The notes under the pieces were generated by a model, which searched no databases, was not told the DNA's origin, and worked only from the letters and a program-made list of their open reading frames with translations. Positions 33,255 to 51,376 of a DNA stretch of 64,000 bases are shown here, in pieces. Position 1 is the first letter of the stretch, and each line of letters starts with the position of its first letter. This stretch comes from Thermoplasmatales archaeon (GTDB taxonomy: Archaea; Thermoplasmatota; E2; DHVEG-1): assembly GCA_020350825.1 (NCBI GenBank), contig CP070724.1, positions 1,316,889-1,380,888 of the forward strand. Direction: 5' to 3'. The position numbers and the translations under genes were made by a program.

Positions 33255-33436
33255 AGAGTCTAAGCGCCTGTAGGAACTGTCACTTATTAACAGAGAAAGA
33301 CCGTTGCCCTTATTGTTCAGATCAAACTGTAAAACGGTGGAGCGGTTACGTTATTATTCGTAACCCTGCTAAATCTCAGATTGCCAAGAAAATGAATATT
33401 ACGAAACCTGGTAAATACGCGCTGAAGGTAAGGTAG
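33251..33436 (+). CDS. spt4: Transcription elongation factor Spt4 (RpoE'')
   Basis: Zinc ribbon CRNCHLLTEKDRCPYC. It overlaps rpoE by 4 nt, the conserved gene order. Confidence 0.85.
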   Translation: MKSLSACRNCHLLTEKDRCPYCSDQTVKRWSGYVIIRNPAKSQIAKKMNITKPGKYALKVR

Positions 33437-33438
33437 TA

Positions 33439-33939: not shown

Positions 33940-34496
33940 TAGGTATGGAAATAGAAATTCAATCAAAAACCAATAATCCATTGTTGAATAGAACTGAAGT
34001 TCATTTTATTATACACCATGAGGGAGAAAGCACGCCGAAGCGTGAACTTATTAGAGGTGAACTTGCAGAAAAACTCAAAGTAAAAAAGGAAAATATTATG
34101 ATCAACTACATGAAATCAAGCTTTGGCACTACAGACACGTTAGGATATGCCAAAGTTTATAAATCCTTAAAAGAGGTAAAAGCTGGGGAAAGAGAATATA
34201 TCCTTATAAGAAACAATATTCTAGTTAAAGAGAAAAAACCAGTTAAGGAAGAAAAGAAGAAACCAGTTGAACCATCAGAGGAAGAACCAGAAGAAGGCGC
34301 TGAGAAACCTGCAGAAGAGACTGCTGTAAAAGTTGAAGAGGGAAAGGTCGAAGAAACTGCCGAAAAACCTGATGAGAAGAAAGAAGAATCGACTGAAAAA
34401 CCGACAAGTGAAGAGAAAATTCACGAAGAAAAACATGATGAAAAGAAATCTGAGGAAGATGTTGAAAGACCAAAAGATGAAGAAAAACCTGCTTAG
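33936..34496 (+). CDS. rps24e: 30S ribosomal protein S24e with a ~85-aa E/K-rich C-terminal extension
   Basis: The core [34 protein letters not shown] is followed by a low-complexity [22 protein letters not shown]... tail. Confidence 0.85.
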
Positions 34497-34513
34497 GAAA
34501 AGAAGGAATAGCC

Positions 34514-34834
34514 ATGATGAAAAGAGAGATATTCAAGATAGAAGGAGATAAGATTATTCGATTGCGTAGGAACTGCCCAAAGTGTGGTGAAGGAGTATTT
34601 CTAGCTGAACACAAAGATCGTTTAAGCTGCGGCAAGTGTGACTATACTGAATTTAAGGTTAAAAAAGATAAAAAGCCGGAAGCGACTGTTGAGGTGAAGG
34701 AAGAAGAATCGGCTAAAAAATCAGAAGAAGGTATTAAGAAACCTATAGAAGAGACTACTGTAAAACCTGATGAAGGAAAGGAAGAAGAAAAGACCGATAT
34801 ACCAGCAAGTGAGGAGAAAACAGAACAACAATAA
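34514..34834 (+). CDS. rps27ae: 30S ribosomal protein S27ae with a ~60-aa E/K-rich C-terminal extension
   Basis: Zinc ribbon [24 protein letters not shown] followed by a [17 protein letters not shown]... tail. Confidence 0.85.
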
Positions 34835-35468: not shown

Positions 35469-36215
35469 ATGAATGTTATTTTTTTAGGTGTTGGAGAAGC
35501 ATTTGATGAAGAGAATCCAAATAACTCACATCTAATTTTATCTGACAAAGTTCTTCTGCTCGATTGTGGTTATTCTACCCCAGGACAACTTTGGAAATAT
35601 AATCCAAATCAATCATTTTTAGATGCAATATTTATTAGTCATGGACATGCAGATCATTATTTTGGATTACCAGCACTTCTTGTTAGAATGTGGGAAGAAA
35701 AAAGAACAAAGCCGTTGACCATTATATGCCACAAGGGATTGAAAGAATCAATCAATGAATTGATTGAATATGGATATAAGGGTTGTTCTACAAATTTTGA
35801 ATTTATCATAGATTTTATAGAAGTTAAAGAACATCAGAAAATCAAACTCAATGAATTGGAGTTAGAATTTGCACCTACAACTCATTCGGTAAAAAACCTT
35901 GCCATAAGGATATATGATGGAAAAAAATCTGTTTGTTATAGTGGAGATGGAATGTTTACTAAAGAGACAGAAAGACTTTACGAAAATGCTGACCTCTTAA
36001 TTCATGAAGCATATTTATTTGATAAAAAAATACCTTTTCATTCATCAGTAAAAGGTTTAATACAAATGGTAAAAAGAAACAACATTAACTGTTTGGCATT
36101 AACCCATCTTCAAAGGGATTTGAAAAAGAAAAAATTAGAAATGATCAAAAATGAAGTTTTGAAAAGGAATTTAAAAATAATTATCCCCATTTCTTTAGAA
36201 GAATATTTACTTTAG
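35469..36215 (+). CDS. MBL-fold hydrolase (RNase Z-like subgroup)
   Basis: ISHGHADHYFGLPALL motif. Confidence 0.7.
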   Translation: MNVIFLGVGEAFDEENPNNSHLILSDKVLLLDCGYSTPGQLWKYNPNQSFLDAIFISHGHADHYFGLPALLVRMWEEKRTKPLTIICHKGLKESINELIEYGYKGCSTNFEFIIDFIEVKEHQKIKLNELELEFAPTTHSVKNLAIRIYDGKKSVCYSGDGMFTKETERLYENADLLIHEAYLFDKKIPFHSSVKGLIQMVKRNNINCLALTHLQRDLKKKKLEMIKNEVLKRNLKIIIPISLEEYLL

Positions 36216-36291
36216 AATTCATAACTGGATTTAAACAAGTATACAATAAAATAAACAGTATAAAAAGTGAGAATTTAACGATACAGCAAGA

Positions 36292-36365
36292 GGATCTGTA
36301 GTGTAGCTTGGATATCACAGGGGCTTCCGGAGCCTCTGACCCGGGTTCGAATCCCGGCAGATCCG
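36292..36365 (+). tRNA. tRNA-Arg (anticodon CCG)
   Basis: Acceptor GGATCTG/CAGATCC, anticodon arm GGGGC-TTCCGGA-GCCTC, T arm CCGGG-TTCGAAT-CCCGG, discriminator G. 74 nt. Confidence 0.9.
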
Positions 36366-36460
36366 TCTAAAATTATTCTGATGGTAAGGGAGTGTCTCCT
36401 TTATGGAAAACTTTAAATACCCCATTTTGTATTACATATTAAATTGTAATAAAAATAATT

Positions 36461-36475
36461 TAGTAATTATTACAA
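36461..36475. promoter_or_regulatory. Fur-family 7-1-7 box candidate TAGTAAT-T-ATTACAA
   Basis: It lies 13 nt upstream of the Fur/PerR-like start codon, with 6/7 matching arms. Extra TTGTAAT-like half sites are at 36444-36450 and 36427-36436. Confidence 0.4.
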
Positions 36476-36487
36476 ATGTGGTTCTAG

Positions 36488-36910
36488 ATGTTTGAAAAAT
36501 ATGTACGATTACTAAAAGAAAGCCAAATAAAAATTACACCTCAAAGATTAGAAATTCTAAAATATTTAGATGAACATAGAACTCATCCAACTGTTGAAAA
36601 AATATATTCAGAATTGAAAGAAAATAACCCTGCTTTATCTAAAACTACTGTATATAACTCTGTAGATATACTTTTGAATCATGGTCTAATTCAATCAATT
36701 ACTATATCTGGTTCTGAACTCCGATATGATTTTAAACGTGGAATGCATCATCATTTTCTTTGTAAAAAATGCGGGGAGATCATTGATATCAATGTTGAAT
36801 GTCCAAAATTAGGGAGTATGTTAGAATGTGGACATGAAGTAGTGGAGGTACATGGATATTTTAAAGGAATATGTAAAAAATGTATAAATAAAAAAAAGGA
36901 AAAGAACTAA
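36488..36910 (+). CDS. Fur-family metalloregulator, PerR-like
   Basis: w[35 protein letters not shown], a second CxxC (CKKC), and the genomic context of peroxide/oxygen detoxification genes. Confidence 0.85.
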
Positions 36911-36911
36911 A

Positions 36912-37607
36912 ATGAATCGAAAAACTTTACATAAAATCCCATATGGGCTATATACAATAACATCACGAAAAAATGGAAAATATAATGGACAAATTGCAAA
37001 TGCATTATTTCAAGTTACATCAGAACCCCCAACTGTTGCAATAAGTATTAATAAAAAGAATTTAACATATGAATATATAAAAGCAAGTAAGGTATTTTCT
37101 GCATCAATATTATGTGATCATGCTCCTATGGTATTTATTGGAACTTTTGGATTCAAATCTGGTCGAGATATTGATAAATTTGAAAATATTAAATATAAAC
37201 TAGGAAAAACCAAAACACCAATAATTACAGAAAATTGTTTAGGATATCTAGAAGCTGAAGTTATTGATGATTTATCTGTTGGAACACATTCAATCTTTAT
37301 TGGAAAGGTTGTTGATGCAGAGATAATGTCTGAAGAAAAAGTAATGACTTATGAATATTATCATGAAATTAAAGGTGGAAAATCACCAAAAAATGCACCA
37401 ACATATAATGGATCGGTGGATGAAGAAATAAAAAAGGAGGTAGAGAAAATGGAAAAATATGTTTGCAAAGTATGTGGTTATGTATATGACCCTGAAAAAG
37501 GAGACCCAGATAACGGAATAGCACTAGGAACTAAATATGTGGATCTCCCTGATGATTGGGTATGTCCTGTTTGTGGAGCTGGAAAAGTAGATTTTGAAAA
37601 GGAGTAA
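36912..37607 (+). CDS. Flavin-reductase domain fused to rubredoxin (high-molecular-weight rubredoxin, Hrb-type)
   Basis: N-terminal split-barrel flavin reductase-like region. The C-terminus [17 protein letters not shown]...[16 protein letters not shown] is a canonical rubredoxin. Confidence 0.8.
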
Positions 37608-37612
37608 TTTAA

Positions 37613-38791
37613 TTGAATGCTGTTGAGATAAAGCCGGATATTTATTGGGTTGGCGGTATCGACTGGGATATTAGAAACTTCCATGGGTATATTACCCAAA
37701 GAGGAACAACCTACAACGCTTACCTAATCATGGATAAAAAAATAACATTAGTAGATACACAAAAACACTATCTCTTTGAAGAAATGCTTTCTAGGATAAA
37801 AGAAATTGTTGATCCTTTAAAGATAGATTACATAGTTTCGAATCACGTAGAAATGGACCATTCAGGATCAATTCAAAAACTCTTAGAAGTTGCCCCTAAT
37901 GCAAAGATTATTACTTCAACAAGAGGAGAAAAGGGTCTGCGTAGGCATTACAAAAAAGACTGGAATTTTAAAGTTGTTAAATCAGGGGATACACTTAACA
38001 TTGGAGAACGAACACTTCACTTTGTTGAAATACCAATGGTTCACTGGCCAGATTCAATGGTTACCTACATTCCAAGTGATAAACTTCTTCTTCCAAACGA
38101 TGCATTTGGCCAACATATTGCAACATCAGAACGTTTTGATGATGAAGTTGACTGGGGCATCTTAAAGGAGGAAGCAGCTAAATATTATGCAAACATAGTT
38201 ATGCCATATGGAAGTCAAGTAGAGAAAGCACTCGAGGCACTATCTGGACTTGACATTGAAATGATTGCACCAAGCCATGGGATAATATGGCGTTCGCTGA
38301 TTCCACAGATTCTTAAGGAGTATACAAAATGGGCGCGATATGAAACTGAGGATAAAGCACTCATTGTCTATGATTCTATGTGGGGTTCAACAGAAGAAAT
38401 AGCCAACACGTTAAGAGAGGGAATAGAAGAAGCAGGCATTCATGTCACCATGAGGAATCTAAAGAACAATCATATCTCGGATGTTATCACTGATGTAATT
38501 TCATCTAAGCTGATACTCCTGGGCTCTCCAACGCTAAACAATACTATGCTTCCGTCAATGGGTGGTTTTCTTACTTATCTTAAGGGACTAAGGCCAAAGA
38601 ATAGAATTGGATTTGTTTTTGGATCCTATGGTTGGGGAGGACAGGCGGTTGGTGAAATTGAGAAAATTATAAAAGACATATCATGGGACGTGCCAGTTGA
38701 AAGTATCAATATCAACTACGTTCCAGATGAAAAAGAACTGCTGGATGTAAGAAAAAAAGGAAAAAAATTAGGAAAATATGTGAAGAATTAA
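37613..38791 (+). CDS. fprA: Flavodiiron protein (FprA-type O2/NO reductase)
   Basis: IYWVGGIDWDIRNFHGY, the HVEMDHSG diiron motif, and a C-terminal flavodoxin domain (LIVYDSMWGSTE). TTG start. Confidence 0.9.
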   Translation: MNAVEIKPDIYWVGGIDWDIRNFHGYITQRGTTYNAYLIMDKKITLVDTQKHYLFEEMLSRIKEIVDPLKIDYIVSNHVEMDHSGSIQKLLEVAPNAKIITSTRGEKGLRRHYKKDWNFKVVKSGDTLNIGERTLHFVEIPMVHWPDSMVTYIPSDKLLLPNDAFGQHIATSERFDDEVDWGILKEEAAKYYANIVMPYGSQVEKALEALSGLDIEMIAPSHGIIWRSLIPQILKEYTKWARYETEDKALIVYDSMWGSTEEIANTLREGIEEAGIHVTMRNLKNNHISDVITDVISSKLILLGSPTLNNTMLPSMGGFLTYLKGLRPKNRIGFVFGSYGWGGQAVGEIEKIIKDISWDVPVESININYVPDEKELLDVRKKGKKLGKYVKN

Positions 38792-38806
38792 AAAGGAGGT
38801 AAAAAA

Positions 38807-38962
38807 ATGTGTAAAACTTGTGGATGTGAAGATGCTGGTAAAAAGATACAGTACAAATGTGATTGTCCAGAAGAAGACTGCAATTGTGGCATTATAGAGT
38901 TTGATGAAGAGCCAAAATCTGTGCCATATTGTTGCGGCATACCAATGAAAAGAATAAAATAA
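38807..38962 (+). CDS. Cys-rich small metalloprotein (51 aa, 9 Cys) with a Dx-like CCGxPM C-terminus, not in the ORF track
   Basis: MCKTCGCEDAGKKIQYKCDCPEEDCNCGIIEFDEEPKSVPYCCGIPMKRIK. A strong AGGAGGT SD lies 9 nt upstream. The antisense ORF 38768..39319 is a low-complexity shadow. Confidence 0.55.
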   Translation: MCKTCGCEDAGKKIQYKCDCPEEDCNCGIIEFDEEPKSVPYCCGIPMKRIK

Positions 38963-38999
38963 ACAAAAAAGAGAAAAAATTAAAAGAGGTAAATAGAAA

Positions 39000-39539
39000 A
39001 TGGTAAAGAAAAAAGAGAAAAAAATTAATATAAAAACAAAAAAAGGCAAGAAAATACCTGTAGAGCGAACGACAACACCTGCTGTATGGAATCCATTTGA
39101 ACTTTTCGAAAATATGGATCGTTTTTTTATGGATGATCCATGGAAATCAATGGGATGGAGACGTAGGTATCCTTTTATTCCATGGTCTGAACATTGGCTG
39201 GAAACGGATACTAAAATGCCCCCCCTAGATTTGGTCGATACTGGAAACAAATATAAAATTATCGCAGAAATCCCAGGCGTCTCAAAGAAAAATTTAGATG
39301 TAAATATTACAGAGAACATGATAAGTATCTGTGGAGAAACTAAAACCGAGACAGAGGAAGAGAATGAAGGTTACATTAGGCATGAACGAAGTTATTCTAC
39401 TATTTGTAGAAATATGGCATTCCCGGAGGAGGTAAACCCAGATAAGGGTGAAGCGACACTGAAAGATGGTATTCTAGAAGTAAAGGTATCAAAGAAGACA
39501 CCAACAACAGGTAGAGGGAGAAAAATCCCAGTAAAATAA
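39000..39539 (+). CDS. Small heat-shock protein (Hsp20/alpha-crystallin) with a K-rich N-terminus
   Basis: DLVDTGNKYKIIAEIPGVSKKNLDVNI...ATLKDGILEVKVSKK. Confidence 0.85.
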   Translation: MVKKKEKKINIKTKKGKKIPVERTTTPAVWNPFELFENMDRFFMDDPWKSMGWRRRYPFIPWSEHWLETDTKMPPLDLVDTGNKYKIIAEIPGVSKKNLDVNITENMISICGETKTETEEENEGYIRHERSYSTICRNMAFPEEVNPDKGEATLKDGILEVKVSKKTPTTGRGRKIPVK

Positions 39540-39573
39540 TAGAAGAAAAATAAGATGGCGGAGGTAAAATTAT

Positions 39574-40122
39574 ATGGCAAAGATTAAGGTATTCAGATGT
39601 AGAATATGCGGCGATCCATACATTGGAATTGATGCACCAACACAGTGTCCGTTCTGTGGTGCACCGCAGCGATACTTCGTTGAGGCGGACAATTGGAACC
39701 CAGATGAGTTTAACTTAATATTGAGTGAAGTGTCACGTAAAAATCTTGAGGCAGCATTACAACTTGAATTAGATAACGCTGCGTTTTATGACTGCGCCAA
39801 AAATGCGGCTCAAACAGCGGGTGATGAATACAGTATCGCCAAGTTTAAGGCGTTGATGAAAGTTGAACGAGAGCATGCCTCTTCCATCTCAAAATTCTTG
39901 AAGATATCCCGACCAGAACTGGAGAAACAATCTTGTAGTGCAAATTCACAAACAAACACCAAGGAAGGTTGGGAGCGAGAAGATCGTGCAATAAAAGCTT
40001 ATACAAAGTTTAGAGATGAGGCAACGGAGCCAAGACTAAAGGAGTTCTTTGGAGCATTAGTTGAAATTGAAACTGATCATCTTGATTTACATGCAGAAAA
40101 TCTCCAATTAAAGGTGAAATAA
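39574..40122 (+). CDS. Rubrerythrin-type diiron protein with an N-terminal rubredoxin-like domain (reverse-rubrerythrin architecture)
   Basis: FRCRICGDPY...CPFCGAPQRYF, then ferritin-like helices with EREH and an ETDH-type motif. Confidence 0.65.
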   Translation: MAKIKVFRCRICGDPYIGIDAPTQCPFCGAPQRYFVEADNWNPDEFNLILSEVSRKNLEAALQLELDNAAFYDCAKNAAQTAGDEYSIAKFKALMKVEREHASSISKFLKISRPELEKQSCSANSQTNTKEGWEREDRAIKAYTKFRDEATEPRLKEFFGALVEIETDHLDLHAENLQLKVK

Positions 40123-40613
40123 TGGATTTAAGCAATTTTGACCTTGAAGATTTGCTTCTTGCAGCTATAAAAAGTGAGGTGGATAGTAAAGAATTGTATT
40201 TAAAAATGTCAAAGAAGACAAAAAATGGATTGTTACAGGATAAACTTAAGTTTCTTTCAAAGGAGGAAGAAAAACATAGATTATTTGTTGAGGATATCTA
40301 TAGGAATCATTTTCCTGAAAAAGATGTAATTCTTCCTAAGAAGACTCCAGTCCCTTTACCAAAAGTAGAAATTACTGAAGATATACCTCTTAGCAAACTT
40401 TTAAGGAGCGCAATGGATTCTGAAAAATCTGCTAGTGATTTTTATAAAATCTTAGCAGAACGGTTTGAAGAGGGAACAAAAATAAACAATACGCTTTTGT
40501 ATTTTTCAGATATGGAACTGGGACACTATAAGATCCTTGAAATGGAAAAAGAAAGTATGGAACGTTTTGAGGAGGCTGATGTGTATTGGCCAATGGTCCA
40601 TGTTGGACCATGA
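40122..40613 (+). CDS. Ferritin-like diiron protein (rubrerythrin family)
   Basis: KEEEKHRLF and MELGHYKILE ExxH motifs. Its start overlaps the preceding stop (ATAATGG context). Confidence 0.6.
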   Translation: MDLSNFDLEDLLLAAIKSEVDSKELYLKMSKKTKNGLLQDKLKFLSKEEEKHRLFVEDIYRNHFPEKDVILPKKTPVPLPKVEITEDIPLSKLLRSAMDSEKSASDFYKILAERFEEGTKINNTLLYFSDMELGHYKILEMEKESMERFEEADVYWPMVHVGP

Positions 40614-40650
40614 ACTTGTTTGAATGAAAAGATAGGAAAGTGAAAAAACT

Positions 40651-41226
40651 ATGAAAAGGTTAAAAGGTACAGAAACAGAAAAAAATCTCCTAGCAGCATT
40701 TGCAGGGGAATCACAGGCTAGAAACCGATACACTTTTTTTGCTGCAAAGGCAAAGAAAGAAGGCTATGAACAGATTTCAGCTATATTCAAGGAAACTTCA
40801 GATAATGAGAAAGAACATGCAGAAGTGTTCTTCAAACATCTGCAGGGGGGAGATACTGAAATTGTAGCTACATACCCCGCAGGTGTGACAGGTATAACCG
40901 CTGAAAACCTTCTTGCAGCTGCTGAAGGTGAAAAGATGGAATGGGGTACACTCTATCCCAACTTTGCAGATGTTGCTGAAAAAGAAGGATTCTCTGATGT
41001 TGCCAGAAGCTTCCGTGAGATAGCAAAAGTGGAATCATATCACGAAAGACGTTATAGAATCCTTTTAGATAATGTGAAAAACAAAAAAGTTTTTAAGAAA
41101 GAAAAGAAAGTTAAGTGGAAGTGTAGGAACTGCGGATATGTTATAGAGTGTGAGGAGGCACCTAAAAAATGCCCAGCATGTCAGCATCCTCAAAGCCATT
41201 ATGAACTTTGGATGGAAAATTACTAA
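40651..41226 (+). CDS. rbr: Rubrerythrin (diiron domain plus C-terminal rubredoxin domain)
   Basis: LKGTETEKNLLAAFAGESQARNRYTFFA, NEKEHAEVF, ESYHERRY, WKCRNCGY...CPACQHP. Confidence 0.9.
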   Translation: MKRLKGTETEKNLLAAFAGESQARNRYTFFAAKAKKEGYEQISAIFKETSDNEKEHAEVFFKHLQGGDTEIVATYPAGVTGITAENLLAAAEGEKMEWGTLYPNFADVAEKEGFSDVARSFREIAKVESYHERRYRILLDNVKNKKVFKKEKKVKWKCRNCGYVIECEEAPKKCPACQHPQSHYELWMENY

Positions 41227-41244
41227 TCAAAATGGTGAAGATAA

Positions 41245-41754
41245 ATGCCAGATATTGAAAATATAAAGGAGGCCATCAAAACGGCAATTCAAATGGAGAA
41301 AGACGGATATTCGTTTTATAAAAAGGCAGCAATTCAAACTTCAAGTGATATGGGGCGAACCGTTTTTAAAAGTCTAGCTAACGATGAACTACTACATCTC
41401 GATGTTTTCGAGAAAATGTTCGAAGATAAGGTTGGAAAATCAGAATGGGAGAAACTGGTAAATTCTGGTAAAAAATATGCTGATATGCCGATTTTTCAAA
41501 AAGATCTTAAAACAGTTGAAGGAGCCAATCCAGGAACCAATGAACTAGATGCTCTATATATAGCGATGACTAGCGAGAAAGAAGCTATTGAGTATTATAC
41601 AAAAATAAAAGAAAGAACTGTTGAGAGCGAGGTTAAGGAAATAATTGATGAGATTATAGAACAGGAGAAAAACCATTATTCAATTCTTGAGCAAGAGTTC
41701 AATTATCTGAGTAAAACTGGATATTGGTATGAAATGGATTATTTAGGTGGATAG
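41245..41754 (+). CDS. Ferritin-like diiron protein (rubrerythrin family)
   Basis: AIQMEKDGYSFY, DELLHLDVF, EKEAIEYY and EQEKNHYSIL motifs. Confidence 0.6.
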   Translation: MPDIENIKEAIKTAIQMEKDGYSFYKKAAIQTSSDMGRTVFKSLANDELLHLDVFEKMFEDKVGKSEWEKLVNSGKKYADMPIFQKDLKTVEGANPGTNELDALYIAMTSEKEAIEYYTKIKERTVESEVKEIIDEIIEQEKNHYSILEQEFNYLSKTGYWYEMDYLGG

Positions 41755-41763
41755 AAAAGAGAG

Positions 41764-42015
41764 GTGTTAACACTGGATTCAAATATTATACCTGATGCAA
41801 AGTTGGACTGTGTGGGCTTTTATTGTCCTATGCCAATTGCAATGACAAAGGAAGAAATTGATAAACTCGAGGTTGGCCAGGTACTGAAAGTTGAGGCAGA
41901 TGATCCAGCAGCAGAAGAGGATATAAAACGATGGGCTAAACGAACTGGGCATGAGATACTTAGATTTGAAAAAGTAGGTATTATTATGACATTCTTTATA
42001 AAAAGAATGAAATGA
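41764..42015 (+). CDS. tusA: TusA/SirA-family sulfur carrier protein
   Basis: LDCVGFYCPMPIAMTK (CPxP active-site Cys) and ADDPAAEEDIKRWAKRTGHE. Confidence 0.8.
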   Translation: MLTLDSNIIPDAKLDCVGFYCPMPIAMTKEEIDKLEVGQVLKVEADDPAAEEDIKRWAKRTGHEILRFEKVGIIMTFFIKRMK

Positions 42016-42043
42016 AAAAAAGAAATAGGAGGTTGTTAAGAAT

Positions 42044-42406
42044 ATGAAAGATGAGAATTCAATTCTCTATGTGCAAACAACAGATATTGCAGAAAAACAG
42101 TATTCGCCGTTGGTCTTAGCTCAAACAGCTAAGATGATGGATATCAAGCCTATTGTATATTATCTTGGCACGGGTTTGAAGATTTTGAAACCTGGTGAGG
42201 CTGAAAAAATCAAACTTGGTAGTTTTCCAAGTGTAGCAGAAATGATTAAAAAGACCCTTGACATGGGAATTAAAATCTATGTGTGTGAAGCATCTAAACA
42301 GATGCTAGGTTGGGAAAAAGTTGAGCTTATTCCAGGTGTTAAAATTGTTGGTGCAGGAACTTTAAATGATCTTGCACTGGAAGCCGGTGCGACAATGTGG
42401 TTTTAA
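42044..42406 (+). CDS. DsrE/DsrF-like family protein
   Basis: Size and the IKIYVCEASKQMLG Cys motif are typical of DsrE-related (COG2210-type) proteins. Confidence 0.65.
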   Translation: MKDENSILYVQTTDIAEKQYSPLVLAQTAKMMDIKPIVYYLGTGLKILKPGEAEKIKLGSFPSVAEMIKKTLDMGIKIYVCEASKQMLGWEKVELIPGVKIVGAGTLNDLALEAGATMWF

Positions 42407-42417
42407 CGAGGAAAATT

Positions 42418-43581
42418 ATGGATAGAATTTATCTGGATCACGCATCCCATATGCCTGTTGATCAACGGGTCCTAAAAATTGCAGAACCTTTTCTGATAAA
42501 AGACTTTGGGAATCCATCATCTCTTTATTCTGCAGGATTGGAAGCAAAACAATCTATCGAAGAATCTAGGGCCAAAATTGCTAGATTTATCAATGCTGAA
42601 AATGAGAAATCTATTGTTTTTACTAGTGGTGCGACGGAGTCAAATAATCTTGCTATTAGGGGAACTGCTTTTAGAAACCTGAAAGATGGAAAGGAGGTTC
42701 TTGCAAGTGCCATAGAGCATATTTCAGTTCTTAATCCTATGAAAGAGCTTCAGAAAAATGGTTTCACTTTCAACATTGTTCCTGTCGATTCGAATGGAGT
42801 TGTTGATCTAAATAAGCTTGATGATCTGTTGACTAATAATACAATTGTGACATCAATTATGTATGCAAATAATGAAATTGGCACGATCCAACCTATTAAA
42901 GAGGTAAGTGAAATCGTTCATACAAAAGGTAGATATTTACATGTTGATGCAACAGCTGCTGCAGGTCGAATCCCTATTGATATCCAGAAGGACAGTATAG
43001 ATCTTTTGACGCTTTCATCTAATGATCTTTATGGGCCTCCAGGTGCTGGTGTGCTATATGTTAAACCCGGTGTAAAAGTTCAAACTGTTATGCCCGGTGG
43101 TGGTCAGGAACGTGGCTTACGCTCCGGAACTGAAAACGTGTTTGCAATTGCCGGTATGGGGGAGGCTGCAAGAATAGCACAAAAAGAAATGAGAAAGGAA
43201 AATGCTAGACTAGAAAAAATTCGAGATAAGCTCATCAATGAGATATTGAAGATCGATCAAGCATATCTAACAGGTCATCCAAAACAACGTCTTCCTAATC
43301 ATGCAAGTTTCCGATTTAGCCATATAGAAGGAGAGAGCATCCTCCTGAATATGGATATGTACAACATTCAGATAGCTACAGGTTCTGCTTGTTCTCATAA
43401 AACATTGGAGGCGTCACATGTTTTATTAGCCATAGGTTTAAAACATGAGGAGGCTCATGGTTCAATGGTAATAACTTTGGGTCATTCAAATAAAATTGAG
43501 CAAGTACCAGTTGTAGTAAAAGCAGCAAGGGAAACTGTGGAAAGACTGAGAAGGCTTTCCCCGCTTGCAAAAAAGAGGTGA
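42418..43581 (+). CDS. IscS/NifS-like class V aminotransferase-fold protein lacking the PLP-binding lysine (SSNDLYGP instead of SxHKxYGP)
   Basis: TSGATESNNLAIRG, HVDATAAAG and ATGSACSH are retained. At codon 43024-43026 GAT (Asp) replaces the Schiff-base Lys. The listed ORF starts at 42397; the ATG at 42418 with a GAGGA SD is preferred. Confidence 0.8.
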   Translation: MDRIYLDHASHMPVDQRVLKIAEPFLIKDFGNPSSLYSAGLEAKQSIEESRAKIARFINAENEKSIVFTSGATESNNLAIRGTAFRNLKDGKEVLASAIEHISVLNPMKELQKNGFTFNIVPVDSNGVVDLNKLDDLLTNNTIVTSIMYANNEIGTIQPIKEVSEIVHTKGRYLHVDATAAAGRIPIDIQKDSIDLLTLSSNDLYGPPGAGVLYVKPGVKVQTVMPGGGQERGLRSGTENVFAIAGMGEAARIAQKEMRKENARLEKIRDKLINEILKIDQAYLTGHPKQRLPNHASFRFSHIEGESILLNMDMYNIQIATGSACSHKTLEASHVLLAIGLKHEEAHGSMVITLGHSNKIEQVPVVVKAARETVERLRRLSPLAKKR

Positions 43582-43958
43582 TAAAAGTGGTAGGTTATAG
43601 CAAAAAAGTTATGGAGCATTTTATGAATCCAAGGAATGTAGGAGTGATAAAAAATCCTGATGGGCATGGGACAGTTGGTAACCCAGTTTGCGGAGATCTC
43701 ATGGAGATTTTCATTAATGTAAAAGATGACATAATTACTGATATTAAATTCAAAACCTTTGGTTGCGGCTCAGCTATTGCTACCAGCAGCATGGTCACAG
43801 AATTAGCTAAGGGTAAGCATGTAGATGAGGCCATGGAAATAACTCGTAAAGATGTAGCAGATGAACTTGATGGTTTGCCACCTCAAAAGATGCATTGTTC
43901 TAATTTGGCAGCTGATGCATTACAGGCGGCAATAAAAGATTATAAAAAGAAGAAGTAA
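43578..43958 (+). CDS. iscU: Fe-S cluster scaffold IscU/NifU-like
   Basis: [36 protein letters not shown]. It overlaps the IscS-like gene by 4 nt. Confidence 0.9.
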
Positions 43959-43978
43959 AAATTTTGGAGGTAAAAATT

Positions 43979-44356
43979 ATGGCAGAAATTAGAGAGATAT
44001 ACAAATGTGAGACATGTGGGAATATAGTAGAAGTTGTTCATGCTGGTCAAGGCGCACTTGTTTGTTGTGGACAAAATATGATGCTTCTTGAGGAGAAAAC
44101 TGAGGATGCATCAACTGAAAAACACGTTCCTTATATAAAAAAAACCTCGAATGGAGTTCTTGTAAAGGTTGGGCAGAATCAAGATCATCCAATGCTTGAA
44201 GAGCATTACATAGAATGGATACAGATAATTGCTGATGGTGCCGCTTATAGAAAGTTTTTAAAACCTGGAGATAAGCCTCAAGCAGAATTTGAAATAAAAG
44301 CAAACAAGATAAACGCACGGGAATACTGTAATGTCCATGGATTGTGGAAATCTTAA
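43979..44356 (+). CDS. dfx: Desulfoferrodoxin (2Fe superoxide reductase)
   Basis: Dx domain [27 protein letters not shown] plus the SOR domain EKHVPYI...[12 protein letters not shown]...CNVHGLW. A GGAGGT SD precedes the ATG at 43979. Confidence 0.9.
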
Positions 44357-45214
44357 ATGATTTATATGGCTAAAAGAAAGATAATAAAAATTGATGAAGA
44401 AAAATGTAATGGATGTGGAGTGTGCATCCCTACTTGTCCTGAAGGAGCATTACAGGTAATAGATGATAAAGCAAGACTTATCAGTGATATATTCTGTGAT
44501 GGCCTGGGTGCTTGTATTGGACATTGCCCTCAAGAAGCTATAACAACCGAAGAAAGAGAGGCAGAGGAATATGATGAAAAAAAGACCATGGAAAATATTG
44601 TAAAAGCTGGTAAAAACACAATCATTGCGCATCTTAATCATTTGAAGGACCATGGTGAAATGGGATATTATAATGAGGCTTTAGAGGTTTTAGAAGAGAA
44701 AGGAATAGAAGTAAACCTTGATGAAAAACCTGCTGATAAATGTGCTAATCAACCTAAAGGATGTCCTGGAGCAAGCGTGATAGATATTTCAGATGAAAAA
44801 AAAAGAAATATTGAAGAAAGTGGAACTAGAAACTCACAACTCCGACAATGGCCGATACAGTTCCATTTGATACCGCCAAATGCACCTTATTTCCAAAGAA
44901 AAGACGTGCTTCTTGTTGCAGATTGTGTTGCCTATTCACTTGCTGATTTTCATAAAGACTATCTAAAAGGTAAAAGTATTGCAATAGCATGTCCAAAACT
45001 AGATTCCAATCAGGACATTTATGAGGAAAAATTAGCAGCTTTAATAGATGATGCAAAGATTAATACATTAACAGTTATAACTATGGAAGTACCCTGTTGT
45101 TCAGGATTGTTAAATCTAGCAAAAAATGCTTCTAAAAAAGCATCAAGAAAGATATCAATAAAATCAATTGTTGTTGGTATTAAAGGTAAAATTTTGAAAG
45201 AAGAATGGGTATAG
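44357..45214 (+). CDS. 4Fe-4S ferredoxin-domain protein with a Cys-containing C-terminal domain of unknown function
   Basis: CNGCGVCIPTCP and CDGLGACIGHCP motifs. The C-terminal ~170 aa carry KGCPG, ADCVAY, ACPKLD and PCCSG. Confidence 0.65.
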   Translation: MIYMAKRKIIKIDEEKCNGCGVCIPTCPEGALQVIDDKARLISDIFCDGLGACIGHCPQEAITTEEREAEEYDEKKTMENIVKAGKNTIIAHLNHLKDHGEMGYYNEALEVLEEKGIEVNLDEKPADKCANQPKGCPGASVIDISDEKKRNIEESGTRNSQLRQWPIQFHLIPPNAPYFQRKDVLLVADCVAYSLADFHKDYLKGKSIAIACPKLDSNQDIYEEKLAALIDDAKINTLTVITMEVPCCSGLLNLAKNASKKASRKISIKSIVVGIKGKILKEEWV

Positions 45215-45225
45215 GAGGTAAGAAA

Positions 45226-45666
45226 ATGAAATCAACAGAGATAACGGATCAAATGGTAAAAGATCATGGAAAAATTATAAAATTACTTAATGATGTTGAG
45301 AAAGTAATTGATCAAGAGCGAGATCTGGTTTCAACTATGAAAGTATTTGATAAATTCGATTGGGAACTTGAAAAGCACTTTTTTACCGAAGAAAAAGCGA
45401 TATTTACTTCATACAAACCAGAAAACGTTACTACGGGTTATGCAATGTTACCAGAGCTTATCAAAGAGCACAATGAAATTTTAAATAATTTGAGGGTTAT
45501 GAGGAGAAACATCAAAAAACAAAAACCCTTTGATTTTCATAGTTTCAAAGTAATTCTAATGAAACACAAAAAATTCGAGGAGAAAGAAGTATATCCTAAA
45601 CTCGATCAGGAATTAGATAAATCAGAGAAGAAGGTTATCATCCAACGAATCAATGAAGTCCTTTAA
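45226..45666 (+). CDS. Hemerythrin-like (HHE cation-binding) domain protein
   Basis: KDHGKII, LEKHFFTEEKAIF, IKEHNEI and KHKKFEEKEVYP spacing is typical of the hemerythrin HHE domain. An AGGAGGT SD precedes the ATG at 45226. Confidence 0.7.
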   Translation: MKSTEITDQMVKDHGKIIKLLNDVEKVIDQERDLVSTMKVFDKFDWELEKHFFTEEKAIFTSYKPENVTTGYAMLPELIKEHNEILNNLRVMRRNIKKQKPFDFHSFKVILMKHKKFEEKEVYPKLDQELDKSEKKVIIQRINEVL

Positions 45667-45720
45667 ACAATTGTTCTGAAAAATGAGAAATTTGTAATAT
45701 GATAGTGGTCGAGTGAAATA

Positions 45721-45900
45721 ATGACAAAATGGAATGAATGTGGGAAAAAATTAGGTATTTTGGATGGCTATTACCATCCAATGTTTGGAAAAAGATGGCT
45801 TTTTTGCAGCAAGTGTTACAACAAGATAGAAGAAAAAGGAGCGTCCCATCTGAAAAAGAAAGGAAATAAAGGTTTCCTGGAAAAACCGACAAAATATTGA
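45721..45900 (+). CDS. Small zinc-ribbon-like protein (59 aa), not in the ORF track
   Basis: MTKWNECGKKLG...WLFCSKCYNKIEEKG.... It competes with antisense ORF 45650..45967, which has no motif. Confidence 0.35.
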   Translation: MTKWNECGKKLGILDGYYHPMFGKRWLFCSKCYNKIEEKGASHLKKKGNKGFLEKPTKY

Positions 45901-45945
45901 TATTAATTATATTGTAAGACAACCGCGAATATTTAGTGATTATTA

Positions 45946-46566
45946 ATGGAAAAATTGTTAGATTCAATCAAAACTTTGAGAGGCAGTGTAGGACCACTAG
46001 TGAATACTCGTATAAAAGAGTTTAAAGGAATTGACAGGGAATCAAGTTATGATCTCTTCAACGAGCTTTGTTTCTGTGTACTTACTGCGAATTTTAATGC
46101 TGAAAAATGTATAAAGATACAAAGAGAGATTGGAGAAGAATTTCTAACACTTACTGAAGAAGAATTAGCAAAAAAACTAGCAGAACTTGGTCATCGTTAT
46201 CCAAATACAAGAGCAAAATATATTTCAGAATCTGCAAAATATAAAGACTCTTTAAAAAATATTATACAATCTTCAGATGGTAAAAGGTTAAGAGAATGGT
46301 TAGTTAAAAATATTAAAGGATTTGGGTACAAAGAAGCTAGCCATTTCTTAAGAAACATTGGTTTTGATGATTATGCTATTATTGATTTTCATATAATTGA
46401 TATCCTCGTAAGATATAATCTAATAAAAAGACCTAAATCACTTTCTAAAAAAAGATATTTGGAAATTGAAAAGACGTTAAAAGATATCGCAAGAAAATTG
46501 GATTTTTGCTTAGCTGAACTTGATTTATATTTATGGTATATTGAAACAGGAAAAATCTTGAAATAA
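45946..46566 (+). CDS. ogg: Archaeal 8-oxoguanine DNA glycosylase/AP lyase (Ogg2-type, HhH-GPD)
   Basis: FCVLTANFNAEKC, IKGFGYKEASHFLRNIGFDDYAIIDFH. Confidence 0.8.
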   Translation: MEKLLDSIKTLRGSVGPLVNTRIKEFKGIDRESSYDLFNELCFCVLTANFNAEKCIKIQREIGEEFLTLTEEELAKKLAELGHRYPNTRAKYISESAKYKDSLKNIIQSSDGKRLREWLVKNIKGFGYKEASHFLRNIGFDDYAIIDFHIIDILVRYNLIKRPKSLSKKRYLEIEKTLKDIARKLDFCLAELDLYLWYIETGKILK

Positions 46567-46838
46567 CCCATATTACAGATTATTGTAAAAAACCAAGATC
46601 TGTTGAATTTCACGTAAAAGTGGAGGATTAATTTTACATGCTTTTTCTCTTTTAATATTATTTGTGTTTAAGACATTATTTCATCTATATGGGCATAAGG
46701 AATATTAAGAGGTCTAGTATGGGATGGTAAAAAAATAAAAATAGTTTGTTTTGAAATCATTTTTTACACCACTAGAACATTCAATATGTTTGGTAGTAAT
46801 ATTAATACATTCTCAAGGAAAACGTATTATTATAAATC

Positions 46839-47906
46839 ATGGTACTATTCTCAGATAAAAGTATGAATGTAAAAGCAGTAAAATTAAACAATGCCAAGAC
46901 AGGCTATCAATTCCTTAGAGCAAATGATATCAAACCTCAAGATGATGCATTTCATGGGAATATTAACCTTCTAGATATCGAATGGTGGTATTTTGACGCC
47001 GTATTTGACAATGGATATAGCATCCATGTGGGAGTTAGAACCTACCATATAAGGAACAGTGGCATCGTTGAATCCCGAATTAACATCTATAAAAAAGGGA
47101 AAGTCGAAGTTGAAGCGATAAAGACAGATCTGCTAAGCGAATTTTATACATCTTATGATCATCCCTGTATTTATATAAAAAATAAACCAGTCGTCGAGTT
47201 TGATCAGATCCATTATAAAAAAACCGGAGAATGGAGATATCAAATATCGTTAAAAATTGAAAATCATGAAGTTAATCTCACATTTACCGGAACCACACGG
47301 GGATGGAAGATTGAAACATTAGATACATGCTGGACCGTCCCTCTACCAAAGGCTAAGGTTAATGGAACAATAACAGTTAATAAGCGTATAATACCAGTAA
47401 AAGGGATAGGATACCATGATCATAATTGGGGGTATTCCCCATCTACAGCTTTTAAAAATCTAGGATGGTTCTGGGGAAGAATTACTGGAGATAAATTGAA
47501 TATAACTTGGGCAAAAACAATGCAAACCACTGAAAAAGGAGATTTGCTCGCAATAATAAATCAAGATAAAAACCACGCTCAGAACAAAAAAGAATTCTAT
47601 AGCATACCACCAACAAATATCACTTTCATTCCAAGAAATTTTGTGAATGATCATCGTAGATGGATACCCTCTGAGTTTGATTTACAGATAACAGATATAA
47701 TCCTAAATAACCATATTCCAATAAACGCAATTATGCATATGAAAACTTTTTATAAACAACACGCAAGGATATTTACAGCTCATTATTGGAGATATCATGT
47801 AAAAACAATTGGAAAAATATCTGTAGGCTCTACAACTGAAACATTAGATGAAAAACCGCAGATTATCGAATTTCTCAGTTTCAAATCACAAAACCTAAGG
47901 AGATAA
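46839..47906 (+). CDS. CrtC/AttH-like lipocalin-fold domain protein (function unknown)
   Basis: IEWWYFDAVFDNGYSIHVG and GIGYHDHNWG motifs resemble the hydroxyneurosporene-synthase/AttH family. Confidence 0.45.
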   Translation: MVLFSDKSMNVKAVKLNNAKTGYQFLRANDIKPQDDAFHGNINLLDIEWWYFDAVFDNGYSIHVGVRTYHIRNSGIVESRINIYKKGKVEVEAIKTDLLSEFYTSYDHPCIYIKNKPVVEFDQIHYKKTGEWRYQISLKIENHEVNLTFTGTTRGWKIETLDTCWTVPLPKAKVNGTITVNKRIIPVKGIGYHDHNWGYSPSTAFKNLGWFWGRITGDKLNITWAKTMQTTEKGDLLAIINQDKNHAQNKKEFYSIPPTNITFIPRNFVNDHRRWIPSEFDLQITDIILNNHIPINAIMHMKTFYKQHARIFTAHYWRYHVKTIGKISVGSTTETLDEKPQIIEFLSFKSQNLRR

Positions 47907-47982
47907 AATTTTCATCAAATTAATGTAAGAAGAATTTTGTGTTATTTATCCTCTTTGAAGATAGAAACATAATTAAATATTC

Positions 47983-49269
47983 TTGTTATACAACCAAATC
48001 GTGTTTCAATTACCGAGAGGAACAAGGGATTTTACTTCAGAAGAAATGGTAAAACGTAGATACGTTGAGGAAAATATAGCATCTACGTTTAAATCATTTG
48101 GATATGGGGAGATCCAAACCCCAACATTTGAGATGTTGGAACTCTTTAAAGCCAAATCTGGCGATTCCATTATTGATGAGATATATGCTTTTTCTGATAA
48201 AGGTGACAGAGAGCTTGCTCTAAGGCCAGAACTTACTGCCCCAGTGATACGTTTTTATGTAGAAAAAATGCAAATGGAACCAAAACCTTTGAAGTTATTT
48301 TATTTTGGTAACTGCTTTAGATACGATAGACCGCAAAAAGGAAGGTATAGAGAATTCTGGCAGGCAGGTTGTGAAATAATAGGAACCAATACCCCGGAAG
48401 CATATGCTGAACTTGTTGCCATGGCATATACTATTTTGAAAAAAGTCGGTTTAAAGAATATCCAACTGAACATTGGGAATCTGGATATTATAAATTCCAC
48501 ATTAACTAAACTTGGCTTATCAAAGGATGATCAAAAGGAACTATTACCATTAATTGACAAATCCCAGTTTGACGATATCTTTTCTTTGTTGACTAATCTT
48601 AACATAACAAACGAGTGTGCAAAAGAATTTTGTGATATATTACAAACAGCAGATATTAACAAGATTAAAAAATTTATCCAAGGGGATACCTCTGCGATGG
48701 ATGAACTATCAAACCTGGAAAAGTTGCTGGATTTGCTAAAAAATTCGTTTAATATAAAAGATTTTAAGATAAAGATGAGTATCGTAAGAGGGCTTGACTA
48801 CTACAAAGGATTAGTCTTTGAGATAGATGCACCATTTTTAGGAGCGGAAAAACAACTTTGTGGCGGAGGAGCATACGATTTAGTTACATTATTTGGTGGA
48901 AGAGAAACTCCTACCGCAGGTTTTGCAGTGGGCTTTGATAGAACTATCCTTGCATTAGATATTGAAAAATTTGCTTTCCCTTCACTTAAAACAGATGTGT
49001 ATATTATACCAGTGAGTGAAGAAATGATAGGGAAATCCATTGAATTATCTCAAAATTTACGAAACGAAGGTATTTCGATAGATTTAGATCTTTTGCGTAG
49101 GGGAATTGGCAAATCCTTGAAATATGCAAATTCTAAGAATGTTAAAAAGGTTATTATTATAGGTCCCAAGGAGTTGGAAAATGATTCTGTTACTCTTAGA
49201 GATATGAAGGCTGGGAATCAAGAAGTAGTAAAGATAGCAGATATAGTTTCTAAACTAAAAATTAACTAA
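47983..49269 (+). CDS. hisS: Histidine--tRNA ligase
   Basis: LPRGTRDF, LRPELTAP, FRYDRPQKGRYREF, GGGAYD (class II motifs) and a C-terminal anticodon-binding domain. TTG start as listed. Confidence 0.9.
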   Translation: MLYNQIVFQLPRGTRDFTSEEMVKRRYVEENIASTFKSFGYGEIQTPTFEMLELFKAKSGDSIIDEIYAFSDKGDRELALRPELTAPVIRFYVEKMQMEPKPLKLFYFGNCFRYDRPQKGRYREFWQAGCEIIGTNTPEAYAELVAMAYTILKKVGLKNIQLNIGNLDIINSTLTKLGLSKDDQKELLPLIDKSQFDDIFSLLTNLNITNECAKEFCDILQTADINKIKKFIQGDTSAMDELSNLEKLLDLLKNSFNIKDFKIKMSIVRGLDYYKGLVFEIDAPFLGAEKQLCGGGAYDLVTLFGGRETPTAGFAVGFDRTILALDIEKFAFPSLKTDVYIIPVSEEMIGKSIELSQNLRNEGISIDLDLLRRGIGKSLKYANSKNVKKVIIIGPKELENDSVTLRDMKAGNQEVVKIADIVSKLKIN

Positions 49270-49288
49270 ACATAAATTAATTTTTATT

Positions 49289-49807: not shown

Positions 49808-49816
49808 GGATTTTAC

Positions 49817-51372: not shown

Positions 51373-51376
51373 GAAT

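Follow-up and report, generated by a model that had tools for sequence, protein, structure and literature searches.

The induction of the assembly of iron-sulfur (Fe-S) clusters together with the defence against reactive oxygen species (ROS) is an established idea, the OxyR-controlled suf genes of Escherichia coli being one example. In Clostridium acetobutylicum, PerR represses rbr and fprA genes (PMC7482061). On the side of Fe-S assembly, the IscS protein of Archaeoglobus fulgidus (IscS2, AfIscS) has Asp199, binds pyridoxamine phosphate and has no cysteine desulfurase activity; its loop Cys provides a ligand to the [2Fe-2S] cluster on IscU, which may be the only role of the protein, and where the cluster sulfur comes from is regarded as an open question, free sulfide being offered tentatively (PMC8918507). 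The IscS2-IscU pair is reported to assemble a [2Fe-2S] cluster. In this study, we analysed a stretch of 64,000 nt from a Thermoplasmatales archaeon (assembly GCA_020350825.1, contig CP070724.1, positions 1,316,889 to 1,380,888 of the forward strand), hereafter called the window, which carries an array of 16 genes for oxygen and ROS defence and for Fe-S and sulfur trafficking. Embedded in this array are the genes of a TusA-family sulfur carrier, a DsrE3-like sulfur transferase, an IscS-like protein of the A. fulgidus type and the scaffold IscU.

Three further systems are relevant for the function of these four proteins. In the E. coli IscS-TusA complex (3lvj), the distance between IscS Cys328 and TusA Cys19 is about 4 Å (PMC2854127). 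Proteins of the DsrE3 and TusA families take up sulfur, either from polysulfide or in the form of thiosulfonate, and hand it on (PMC11094781). MisS-MisU of the minimal Fe-S (MIS) system is a two-gene IscS/IscU-like pair without HscAB, IscA and Fdx, which is typical of archaea and anaerobes (PMC13066941). Our preferred reading of the locus, to which we give an even chance, is that a PerR-repressed operon couples the removal of O2 and ROS to a cysteine-independent rebuilding of Fe-S clusters fed by a persulfide relay of TusA and DsrE3.

A Lys-less IscS clade with TusA and DsrE as neighbours

As already pointed out in the initial annotation, the IscS-like protein of the array lacks the lysine that binds pyridoxal phosphate (PLP); its motif is SSND where cysteine desulfurases have S-x-H-K. 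It has the class V aminotransferase fold and the mobile-loop persulfide Cys, and scored below the NCBIfam cut-offs for NifS (431.9 bits; cut-off 530.75) and IscS (383 bits; cut-off 643). Among proteins of solved structure, it is closest to A. fulgidus IscS2 (4eb5/4hvk, E-value 8e-131), which has the same SSND motif with Asp at the Lys position; in the window, too, IscU is encoded next to it. A D199K variant of A. fulgidus IscS2 is available as entry 4r5f. The 96 sequences carrying SSN[D/E/A/N] or SAND grouped into one clade without intruders in a neighbour-joining tree of 226 IscS sequences from the fetched loci. Within this Lys-less clade, the exchanges Q183A (91/96), H205N (96/96) and K206D (92/96) were found, while Thr76, His104, Asp180, Ser203 and the loop Cys (in GSAC, 96/96) were invariant. 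Judged from these sequences, the Lys-less PLP site is a stable, remodelled cofactor site and not the result of decay. The window protein shares its substitutions with AfIscS and on this basis is predicted to be without cysteine desulfurase activity. A Lys-less IscS is not new in itself, as it corresponds to the biochemically characterised A. fulgidus IscS2 type.

The association of this clade with other genes was first assessed in loci retrieved solely by IscS, with the window protein or the A. fulgidus sequence as query, so that the sampling was blind to the neighbours. TusA and/or DsrE were encoded directly upstream of a Lys-less IscS in 25 of 27 testable loci but in none of 113 loci with a Lys-bearing IscS (Fisher p ~1e-25), a value that is weakened by the counting of related genomes, which are not phylogenetically independent, and by the different taxonomy of the Lys-bearing controls. 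The order TusA-DsrE-IscS(SSND)-IscU is also present in Archaeoglobus loci whose IscS shares 77-89% identity with the crystallised IscS2. Also from the other side, with loci sampled by DsrE, the Lys-less IscS follows TusA-DsrE in 65 of 79 cases, usually together with IscU. The residues expected to handle sulfur and clusters are kept throughout: the TusA motif is CPMP, and the Cys21 of CPxP is invariant in 100 of 100 homologues; the DsrE-like protein aligns via Cys81 with its best solved relative, the Sulfolobus DsrE3A (3mc3, E-value 2.6e-11), and this Cys is invariant in 104 of 104 homologues; and Cys38, Asp40, Cys63, His106 and Cys107 of IscU are conserved in 180-182 of 182 homologues.

The module was found in archaea (Thermoplasmatota, Bathyarchaeia, metagenome-assembled genomes (MAGs) of Methanocellales and Methanosarcinales, Asgard archaea and Archaeoglobi) and in bacteria (WOR-3, Zixibacteria, Ignavibacteria, Aminicenantes, Deltaproteobacteria, Thermoleophilia and Eisenbacteria), with several copies located on closed chromosomes. 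DsrE is 75-95% identical between archaea and bacteria, which points to strong constraint and horizontal transfer. The near-constant presence of TusA and DsrE suggests where the Lys-less IscS obtains its sulfur.

The relay also occurs without the assembly pair. One locus (L093) has the order PerR-FprA-CysMini-TusA-DsrE-Dfx-Rbr without IscS and IscU (CysMini, the 51-aa Cys-rich protein; Dfx, desulfoferrodoxin; Rbr, rubrerythrin), and DsrE-like genes with 78-82% identity stand alone in other contexts. For this reason the relay may have a role of its own, which counts against our preferred reading and would agree with a rather unlikely alternative, namely that the sulfur carriers serve mainly in reactive-sulfur defence, with TusA and DsrE scavenging sulfane sulfur, IscS and IscU acting as a thiol sink and Fe-S rebuilding being secondary or absent. 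For members of the DsrE4 group, a detoxifying role towards reactive sulfur species has been proposed (PMC11094781), and the marine or estuarine sediment from which the genome originates is likely sulfidic. This alternative, however, is at odds with the Lys-less IscS that follows TusA-DsrE in the great majority of the loci sampled with DsrE, with the invariant IscU ligands and IscS loop Cys, which point to cluster chemistry, and with the cluster assembly by the A. fulgidus pair.

Further IscS and DsrE genes were observed outside such modules. A canonical Lys-bearing IscS/NifS (SSHK), 46% identical to the Lys-less protein, is encoded in the window at 51864-53033 on the minus strand, away from the ROS genes and with no IscU beside it; it belongs to a minus-strand run (50668-54035) with, as judged by eye, NadA-like (53034-54035), QueD-like (51377-51853) and QueC-like (50668-51372) genes, and the same canonical IscS near the gene for HisRS was seen in three relatives (L017, L021 and L022). 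In L135 and L140, near 9500-10400, a stand-alone DsrE-like gene (78-80%) follows an ORF (open reading frame) for a cupin-like protein of 138-159 aa (by eye), and TusA, IscS and IscU are absent there. Locus L089 was considered as another case of TusA-DsrE without IscS and was rejected, since the beginning of an IscS gene is present in this locus and continues into masked sequence (N).

Recurrent linkage of the module to ROS genes

A ROS neighbour was defined as Hrb, FprA, reverse rubrerythrin, rubrerythrin or desulfoferrodoxin encoded in the flanks with at least 40% identity. In the set sampled with IscS, at least one ROS neighbour was present in 11 of 32 Lys-less loci compared to 0 of 124 Lys-bearing loci (p ~5e-9, with the same limits of relatedness and taxonomy as the value above). 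Among the loci sampled with DsrE that contain the TusA-DsrE-IscS core, 35 of 65 had a ROS neighbour. The linkage also exists in bacteria, where the gene orders are different (L002, L121, L143 and L156): a WOR-3 MAG has the order Dfx-TusA-DsrE-IscS-IscU-FerL-Rbr (FerL, ferritin-like protein) and two other loci (L143, L156) have PerR-Rbr-Hrb-FprA-Dfx-FerL-TusA-DsrE-IscS-IscU, each with the Lys-less IscS. Because the bacterial gene orders differ, the linkage itself seems to be under selection, and not one inherited ancestral arrangement.

In the initial annotation, the physical fusion of the detoxification genes with a sulfur relay, an Fe-S scaffold and a chaperone was regarded as the unusual trait of the array. 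This interpretation is partly supported. Relay and scaffold recur with ROS genes, also in rearranged form in bacteria. The fusion does not extend to the chaperone, since the gene of the small heat-shock protein (sHSP) is variable, nor to all occurrences of the module: in roughly half of the loci with the module, among them those of Archaeoglobus, a stretch of 8-10 kb around it is free of ROS genes. The module is thus not intrinsically a stress system, a point that weighs against our preferred reading. The fusion with ROS genes is recurrent but lineage-dependent, and TusA-DsrE-IscS-IscU with a Lys-less IscS is an autonomous four-gene module.

Organisation and control of the array

From the ATG of the Fur-family gene (36488) to the stop codon of the hemerythrin gene (45666), the ORF list contains exactly 16 ORFs, all on the plus strand, as annotated initially. 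With the longest-ORF starts, the 15 junction gaps are 1, 5, 15, 37, 34, -1, 37, 18, 9, 28, -10, -4, 5, 0 and -10 nt; all are thus below 40 nt, ranging from -10 to +37 nt, and four genes overlap with their predecessor. The gaps are all purine-rich, and GGAGG/GGTG-type Shine-Dalgarno motifs are located 6-12 nt before most internal starts, which agrees with the strong motifs noticed before. Co-directionality alone is weak evidence, because the plus-strand run reaches well past the array (35469-50644); the array is set apart by its tight packing and functional coherence.

As the host is an archaeon, promoters and terminators were scanned with the archaeal TATA consensus and T-runs instead of a sigma-70 tool. 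The TATA box TTTAAATA, preceded by GAAAAC, is the sole plus-strand match to TTTAWATA in 36366-45479. It lies 76 nt before the perR ATG within the 122 nt between the end of a tRNA-Arg gene (36365) and perR, and the next plus-strand match is found only inside the last gene of the array. No T-run of at least six was present in the intergenic gaps of the array. Downstream of the TATA box, two adjoining Fur/PerR-type 7-1-7 boxes were found (Table 1). Box 2 (TAGTAATTATTACAA) is the only match to TTGTAATNATTACAA with up to two mismatches in 64 kb, although 78 of 100 shuffles contained at least one such match, so that finding one is not unusual by chance. In 17 relatives, the two boxes and the TATA box align at fixed spacing (consensus ATTGTAAT.AT.ACAA..T.G.AAT.ATTA.A). 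The weight of the operator therefore comes from the constant distance of both boxes to the TATA box in relatives and not from chance rarity. Given the usual distance from TATA box to transcription start in archaea, the boxes would span about +2 to +33.

The best solved relative of the regulator is PerR of Bacillus subtilis (2fe3, E-value 4e-22). His37, Asp85, His91, His93, Asp104 and both CxxC pairs align with this structure (HPT, RYDF, HHH, IID, CKKC and CKKC), which covers the regulatory metal site and the structural Zn(Cys)4 site. The Fur fold and a 7-1-7 palindromic operator are present as well. The conserved PerR-type operator and the lack of internal consensus promoters and terminators fit one stress-controlled unit, and the array is predicted to form one PerR-repressed transcript.

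The stand-alone modules of Archaeoglobus and many bacteria, as well as one closed Thermoplasmatales chromosome with an embedded (L082) and a stand-alone copy (L103), would also suit a different explanation, which we regard as improbable: that the module is a housekeeping minimal (MIS-type) Fe-S system with its own promoter, placed here by happenstance, and that the array consists of several transcription units. To its advantage and to the disadvantage of a single transcript, archaeal promoters inside upstream coding sequence may be missed by a consensus scan. Yet the junctions on both sides of the module measure only 8-40 nt (second ferritin-like gene to TusA) and 16-51 nt (IscU to desulfoferrodoxin) in 16-18 loci, and no TATA consensus or T-run is located in or near the junctions of the module. 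Neutral co-location would also not be expected to preserve a ROS linkage that recurs rearranged in unrelated bacteria, and the Lys-bearing IscS-IscU loci, with none of 124 having a ROS neighbour, do not show this linkage.

The position of the array behind a tRNA gene was also considered as a sign of a genomic island at tRNA-Arg. This was rejected, as no repeat of the tRNA end exists in the window. In the closest relative (L085), where the 3' end of the tRNA is duplicated, the copies enclose not the array but a separate insert of 1.9 kb upstream of perR. This insert (L085 2987-5020) is located between tRNA-Arg(CCG) and the perR promoter, its counterpart in the window (36366-36487) being empty. 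The direct repeat at its borders comprises about 17 nt from the 3' end of the tRNA. The insert carries genes for a DUF6036 nucleotidyltransferase and a TrmB-like helix-turn-helix protein on the minus strand and has the appearance of a small element that integrated at the tRNA.

Conservation of the array in relatives

Relatives were sampled with the DsrE-like protein as query, and all 16 proteins were then located by tblastn. In twelve Thermoplasmatota loci, between 11 and 15 of the 16 genes showed colinearity with the window. The arrangement is thus not unique to one genome, which had been named with the initial annotation as a sign of random accretion. Flanking genes are shared with only one of the 12 loci (L085), and the other 11 have different flanks; the block is therefore kept while its surroundings change. 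That the array arose by chance accretion in the source genome, or is an assembly artefact, is hardly credible: the length of the plus-strand run, which devalues co-directionality, could be cited for it, but the 12 colinear loci stem from independent assemblies including closed chromosomes, and contigs of the source sample cover the region at 98% of the sampled words.

The closest locus, L085 of Thermoplasmatota archaeon CSMAG_2770, encodes array proteins with identities of mostly 79-96% to those of the window (Hrb 71%; sHSP absent). On the upstream side, both have a nitroreductase, a metallo-beta-lactamase-type (MBL) hydrolase and the same tRNA-Arg, and on the downstream side both have Ogg, a 355-aa protein and HisRS. 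The gene for the Ogg-type enzyme is the next one downstream of the array on the same strand in the window. It directly follows the hemerythrin gene in L085, and in L081 and L095 it is found at a distance of 4-7 kb downstream; the repair of oxidised DNA may therefore be part of the same neighbourhood. Other close loci were found in Thermoplasmatales MAGs, e.g. SG8-52-3. The source is a sediment Thermoplasmatota archaeon related to MAGs of MBG-D/Thermoprofundales. On the DNA level, the region was found at 98% of the sampled words in one sediment metagenome, and it is partly present in many marine-sediment and cold-seep metagenomes.

Proposed mechanism and its weighing

Under the preferred reading of a PerR-repressed operon, the reduced, metal-loaded PerR-like repressor would occupy the two boxes just downstream of the TATA box. 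Peroxide would inactivate the repressor, and the array of about 9.2 kb would be read through as one unit. Based on the family assignments, Hrb would deliver electrons to FprA for the reduction of O2 to water, desulfoferrodoxin would reduce superoxide, rubrerythrin and reverse rubrerythrin would reduce H2O2, and the two erythrin-like proteins and hemerythrin would handle or buffer iron. The DsrE3 Cys could capture sulfane sulfur from polysulfide, thiosulfate or persulfides, which are formed when sulfidic cells meet O2. From there, sulfur would move to the TusA Cys and on to the loop Cys of the Lys-less IscS, to be built into clusters on IscU; electrons may come from the 4Fe-4S protein, and iron may be provided or buffered by the di-iron proteins. 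By this route, the operon would clear oxidants and also rebuild damaged Fe-S clusters with no need for free cysteine or free sulfide. Both the direction of the sulfur flow from DsrE3 via TusA and IscS to IscU and the role of the array in Fe-S repair are our predictions from gene content and conserved residues.

Besides the module loci without ROS genes and the relay genes without IscS, several points weigh against this proposal. The regulator scored 107.4 bits (cut-off 180) and 86 bits (cut-off 200) with the NCBIfam PerR equivalogs; as this is below the thresholds curated for bacterial PerR, we call it PerR-like. The residues of IscS that contact TusA in E. coli (W45, E49 and D52) are, by eye, only partly kept, and the IscS-TusA interface is thus not demonstrably conserved. 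Matches in metatranscriptomes were limited to two sets with 7-8% of the words, in which contigs of 151-291 nt, mostly below 90% identical, crossed no junction; in situ expression of related genes is all that can be read from them.

With more reserve than for the operon, we can also imagine a broader interpretation, which we hold to be somewhat more doubtful than convincing. TusA, DsrE3, Lys-less IscS and IscU would represent a distinct cysteine-independent Fe-S assembly system, in which a persulfide relay replaces the desulfurase. It would have spread horizontally in anaerobic archaea and bacteria, would be the source of the sulfur used by the A. fulgidus pair, and would have been recruited in Thermoplasmatota into a PerR-controlled operon as a stress backup comparable to Suf in E. 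coli.

All component families are already known. The literature on DsrE/TusA/IscS/IscU clusters, on the neighbours of AF0564 and on oxidative stress in Thermoprofundales was searched, the MIS-defining paper (Garcia et al. 2022) lying outside this search, and neither linkage nor array was found described. Within the searchable literature, three features appear to be undescribed: the near-constant linkage of Lys-less IscS to TusA and DsrE, the repeated joining of the module to O2/ROS genes across distant anaerobes, and an archaeal PerR-type promoter-operator conserved before a 16-gene array. The linkage turns the stated open question on the sulfur source of AfIscS into a testable hypothesis with four small soluble proteins, and the findings are relevant to the survival of oxygen pulses by the abundant, uncultured archaea of sediments.

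Gene content, variable and uncharacterised members

The features of the array and its borders are listed in Table 1. The gene names of the initial annotation agree with Pfam for 15 of the 16 genes, the exception being the 51-aa Cys-rich ORF. Beyond the family scores, the translation of FprA shows the H-x-E-x-D-H motif as NHVEMDH, consistent with the domains of a class A flavodiiron protein (FDP). Rubrerythrin and reverse rubrerythrin each have the domain order typical of their type, and in the first ferritin-like protein E, ExxH, E and ExxH are visible. Desulfoferrodoxin has both Pfam domains (desulforedoxin and superoxide reductase) above cut-off, as expected for a 2Fe superoxide reductase. 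Hemerythrin has a weak, sub-threshold match to the RIC family of di-iron proteins for Fe-S repair (E-value 7.6e-6). No homologues of HscAB, IscA and Fdx were found among the array proteins by the Pfam scan. For three genes, other starts than the longest ORF come into question: the Lys-less IscS may start at ATG 42418, desulfoferrodoxin likely starts at ATG 43979 with GGAGGT upstream, and the Shine-Dalgarno motifs, together with a database entry of 282 aa, suggest Met4 (44366) as start of the 4Fe-4S protein.

Table 1. Coordinates of the array genes, of their putative control elements and of bordering features in the window
Feature	Position	Strand	Evidence
tRNA-Arg(CCG), upstream boundary of array	36292..36365	+	Rfam tRNA 57.6 bits, ARAGORN
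TATA box TTTAAATA, candidate array promoter	36412..36419	+	TTTAWATA consensus scan
Fur/PerR-type 7-1-7 box 1, TTGTAAT-A-AAAATAA, right half degenerate	36444-36458	+	Adjoins box 2
Fur/PerR-type 7-1-7 box 2, TAGTAAT-T-ATTACAA	36461-36475	+	Palindrome match
PerR-like Fur-family regulator, 140 aa	36488..36910	+	Pfam FUR 93.7 bits (cut-off 23.1)
Hrb, flavin reductase-rubredoxin fusion, 231 aa	36912..37607	+	Flavin_Reduct 119.7 bits, Rubredoxin 82.2 bits
Class A flavodiiron protein FprA, 392 aa, TTG start	37613..38791	+	ODP/Lactamase_B and Flavodoxin_1
51-aa Cys-rich protein	38807..38962	+	Family match absent in Pfam/NCBIfam
Small heat-shock protein (HSP20)	39000..39539	+	HSP20 68.8 bits; variable insert
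Reverse rubrerythrin	39574..40122	+	RUBY_RBDX residues 7-35 (N-terminal), Rubrerythrin residues 56-172
Ferritin-like/erythrin di-iron protein 1, without rubredoxin domain	40122..40613	+	Rubrerythrin family 62.1 bits
Classical rubrerythrin	40651..41226	+	Rubrerythrin 109 bits, C-terminal RUBY_RBDX 45.3 bits
Ferritin-like/erythrin di-iron protein 2, without rubredoxin domain	41245..41754	+	Rubrerythrin family 55.1 bits
TusA-family sulfur carrier, 83 aa, GTG start	41764..42015	+	TusA 82.6 bits (cut-off 28.6)
DsrE3-like sulfur transferase, 120 aa	42044..42406	+	DsrE 51.5 bits
Lys-less IscS-like protein (A. fulgidus IscS2 type)	42397..43581	+	Aminotran_5 252.8 bits
IscU scaffold, 126 aa	43578..43958	+	NifU_N 171 bits
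Desulfoferrodoxin (Dfx, 2Fe superoxide reductase)	43964..44356	+	Desulfoferrod_N 63.1 bits, Desulfoferrodox 77 bits
2x[4Fe-4S] ferredoxin-domain protein with conserved Cys-bearing C-terminal domain	44357..45214	+	Fer4 families, residues 7-63 only
Hemerythrin (HHE) di-iron protein	45205..45666	+	Hemerythrin 53.3 bits
Ogg-type N-glycosylase/DNA lyase (8-oxoguanine repair), possible extension	45946..46566	+	NCBIfam PRK01229 261 bits (cut-off 183)

Close relatives differ in whether they have the sHSP gene (absent in L085, L090, L095 and L113), and in contigs of related strains from the source sample position 38963 is joined to 39571 via about 31 unrelated nt without the sHSP gene. It is therefore an insertion/deletion polymorphism, a variable insert and not a core member of the array. 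The 51-aa protein, for which no family was matched in Pfam or NCBIfam, has nine invariant Cys at positions 2, 5, 7, 18, 20, 25, 27, 42 and 43 in 18 loci, with the pattern MCxxCGC...CxC....CxC...CCGxPMKR and a conserved IEFDEEP stretch; in these loci its gene always follows FprA or Hrb.

The C-terminal part of the 4Fe-4S protein corresponds to the precomputed family PF27217. No match for this domain was obtained with the local Pfam copy, which does not include PF27217, or among PDB sequences, and a Foldseek search of the PDB with an AlphaFold2 model of the protein (mean predicted local distance difference test score, pLDDT, 60.7) gave nothing better than an E-value of 0.01 and a template modelling (TM) score of 0.25. 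In eight relatives, genes for an AhpD-like protein (CMD family) and a hybrid-cluster protein (Hcp; Prismane, 605 bits) are located between the genes for desulfoferrodoxin and the 4Fe-4S protein. This pair is found at 12323-14297 in L085; the window has neither gene, the junction 44356/44357 having a gap of 0 nt. Because the pair precedes its gene in these relatives, the 4Fe-4S protein may originally be a partner of Hcp.

Other observations in the window

At 30178-30293 on the minus strand, Rfam detected a tRNA over 116 nt that was not called by ARAGORN; an archaeal tRNA with an intron is the probable explanation. Judged by eye, the flanking genes are of archaeal appearance, with ORFs for RNA polymerase subunit E, Spt4-like and ribosomal protein S24e/S27ae-like proteins. 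Among them, at 32649-34834 on the plus strand, consecutive small informational ORFs (RpoE-like, S24e-like and S27ae-like zinc-ribbon) with long Lys/Glu-rich low-complexity tails were noticed, likewise by eye.

Comparison with known systems

With regard to regulation, the closest systems are the PerR regulon of C. acetobutylicum and perR-rbr-sor of Clostridioides difficile, in which a Fur-family peroxide sensor acts over genes for rubrerythrin, reverse rubrerythrin, FDP and desulfoferrodoxin in strict anaerobes (PMC7482061). The PerR ligands and an AT-rich 7-1-7 palindrome at the promoter are also present in the window. The window differs in having one 16-gene array which includes the sulfur relay and the Fe-S scaffold, and in its regulation being predicted; its promoter is of the TATA/BRE (transcription factor B recognition element) type, unlike the clostridial ones, because the host is an archaeon. 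The Hrb-FprA pair of Moorella thermoacetica, which reportedly forms an electron chain from NADH to the FDP, has the same flavin reductase-rubredoxin fusion beside a class A FDP, the likeness being one of domains only.

As in the MIS system, the IscS-IscU pair of the window comes without chaperones, A-type carrier and Fdx. MisS is described as a cysteine desulfurase, however, whereas the window clade lacks the catalytic Lys, and TusA and DsrE are outside the MIS definition. Closer is the IscS2-IscU pair of A. fulgidus (4eb5, 4hvk) with the same SSND motif in the same Lys-less clade, paired with IscU as in the window; its close relatives are about 51-53% identical to the window protein, and the Archaeoglobus loci are not among ROS genes. 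Published work treats this pair alone and proposes free sulfide, and in the literature found no TusA or DsrE neighbours are mentioned.

For the sulfur relay, the E. coli IscS-TusA complex provides a precedent with the same two protein families, and the loop Cys as well as the CPxP Cys are both invariant in the window homologues. In E. coli, sulfur is passed from an active desulfurase to TusA; the flow proposed here runs in the reverse direction, because the Lys-less IscS would be unable to make a persulfide from cysteine. The DsrE3/TusA cascades of sulfur oxidisers with sHdr likewise pair a DsrE3-type protein having a single active Cys with TusA, as in the window. There are no sHdr, Dsr or lipoate-binding genes near the window module, and the partner of the relay is an Fe-S assembly pair in anaerobes in place of a complex for dissimilatory oxidation.

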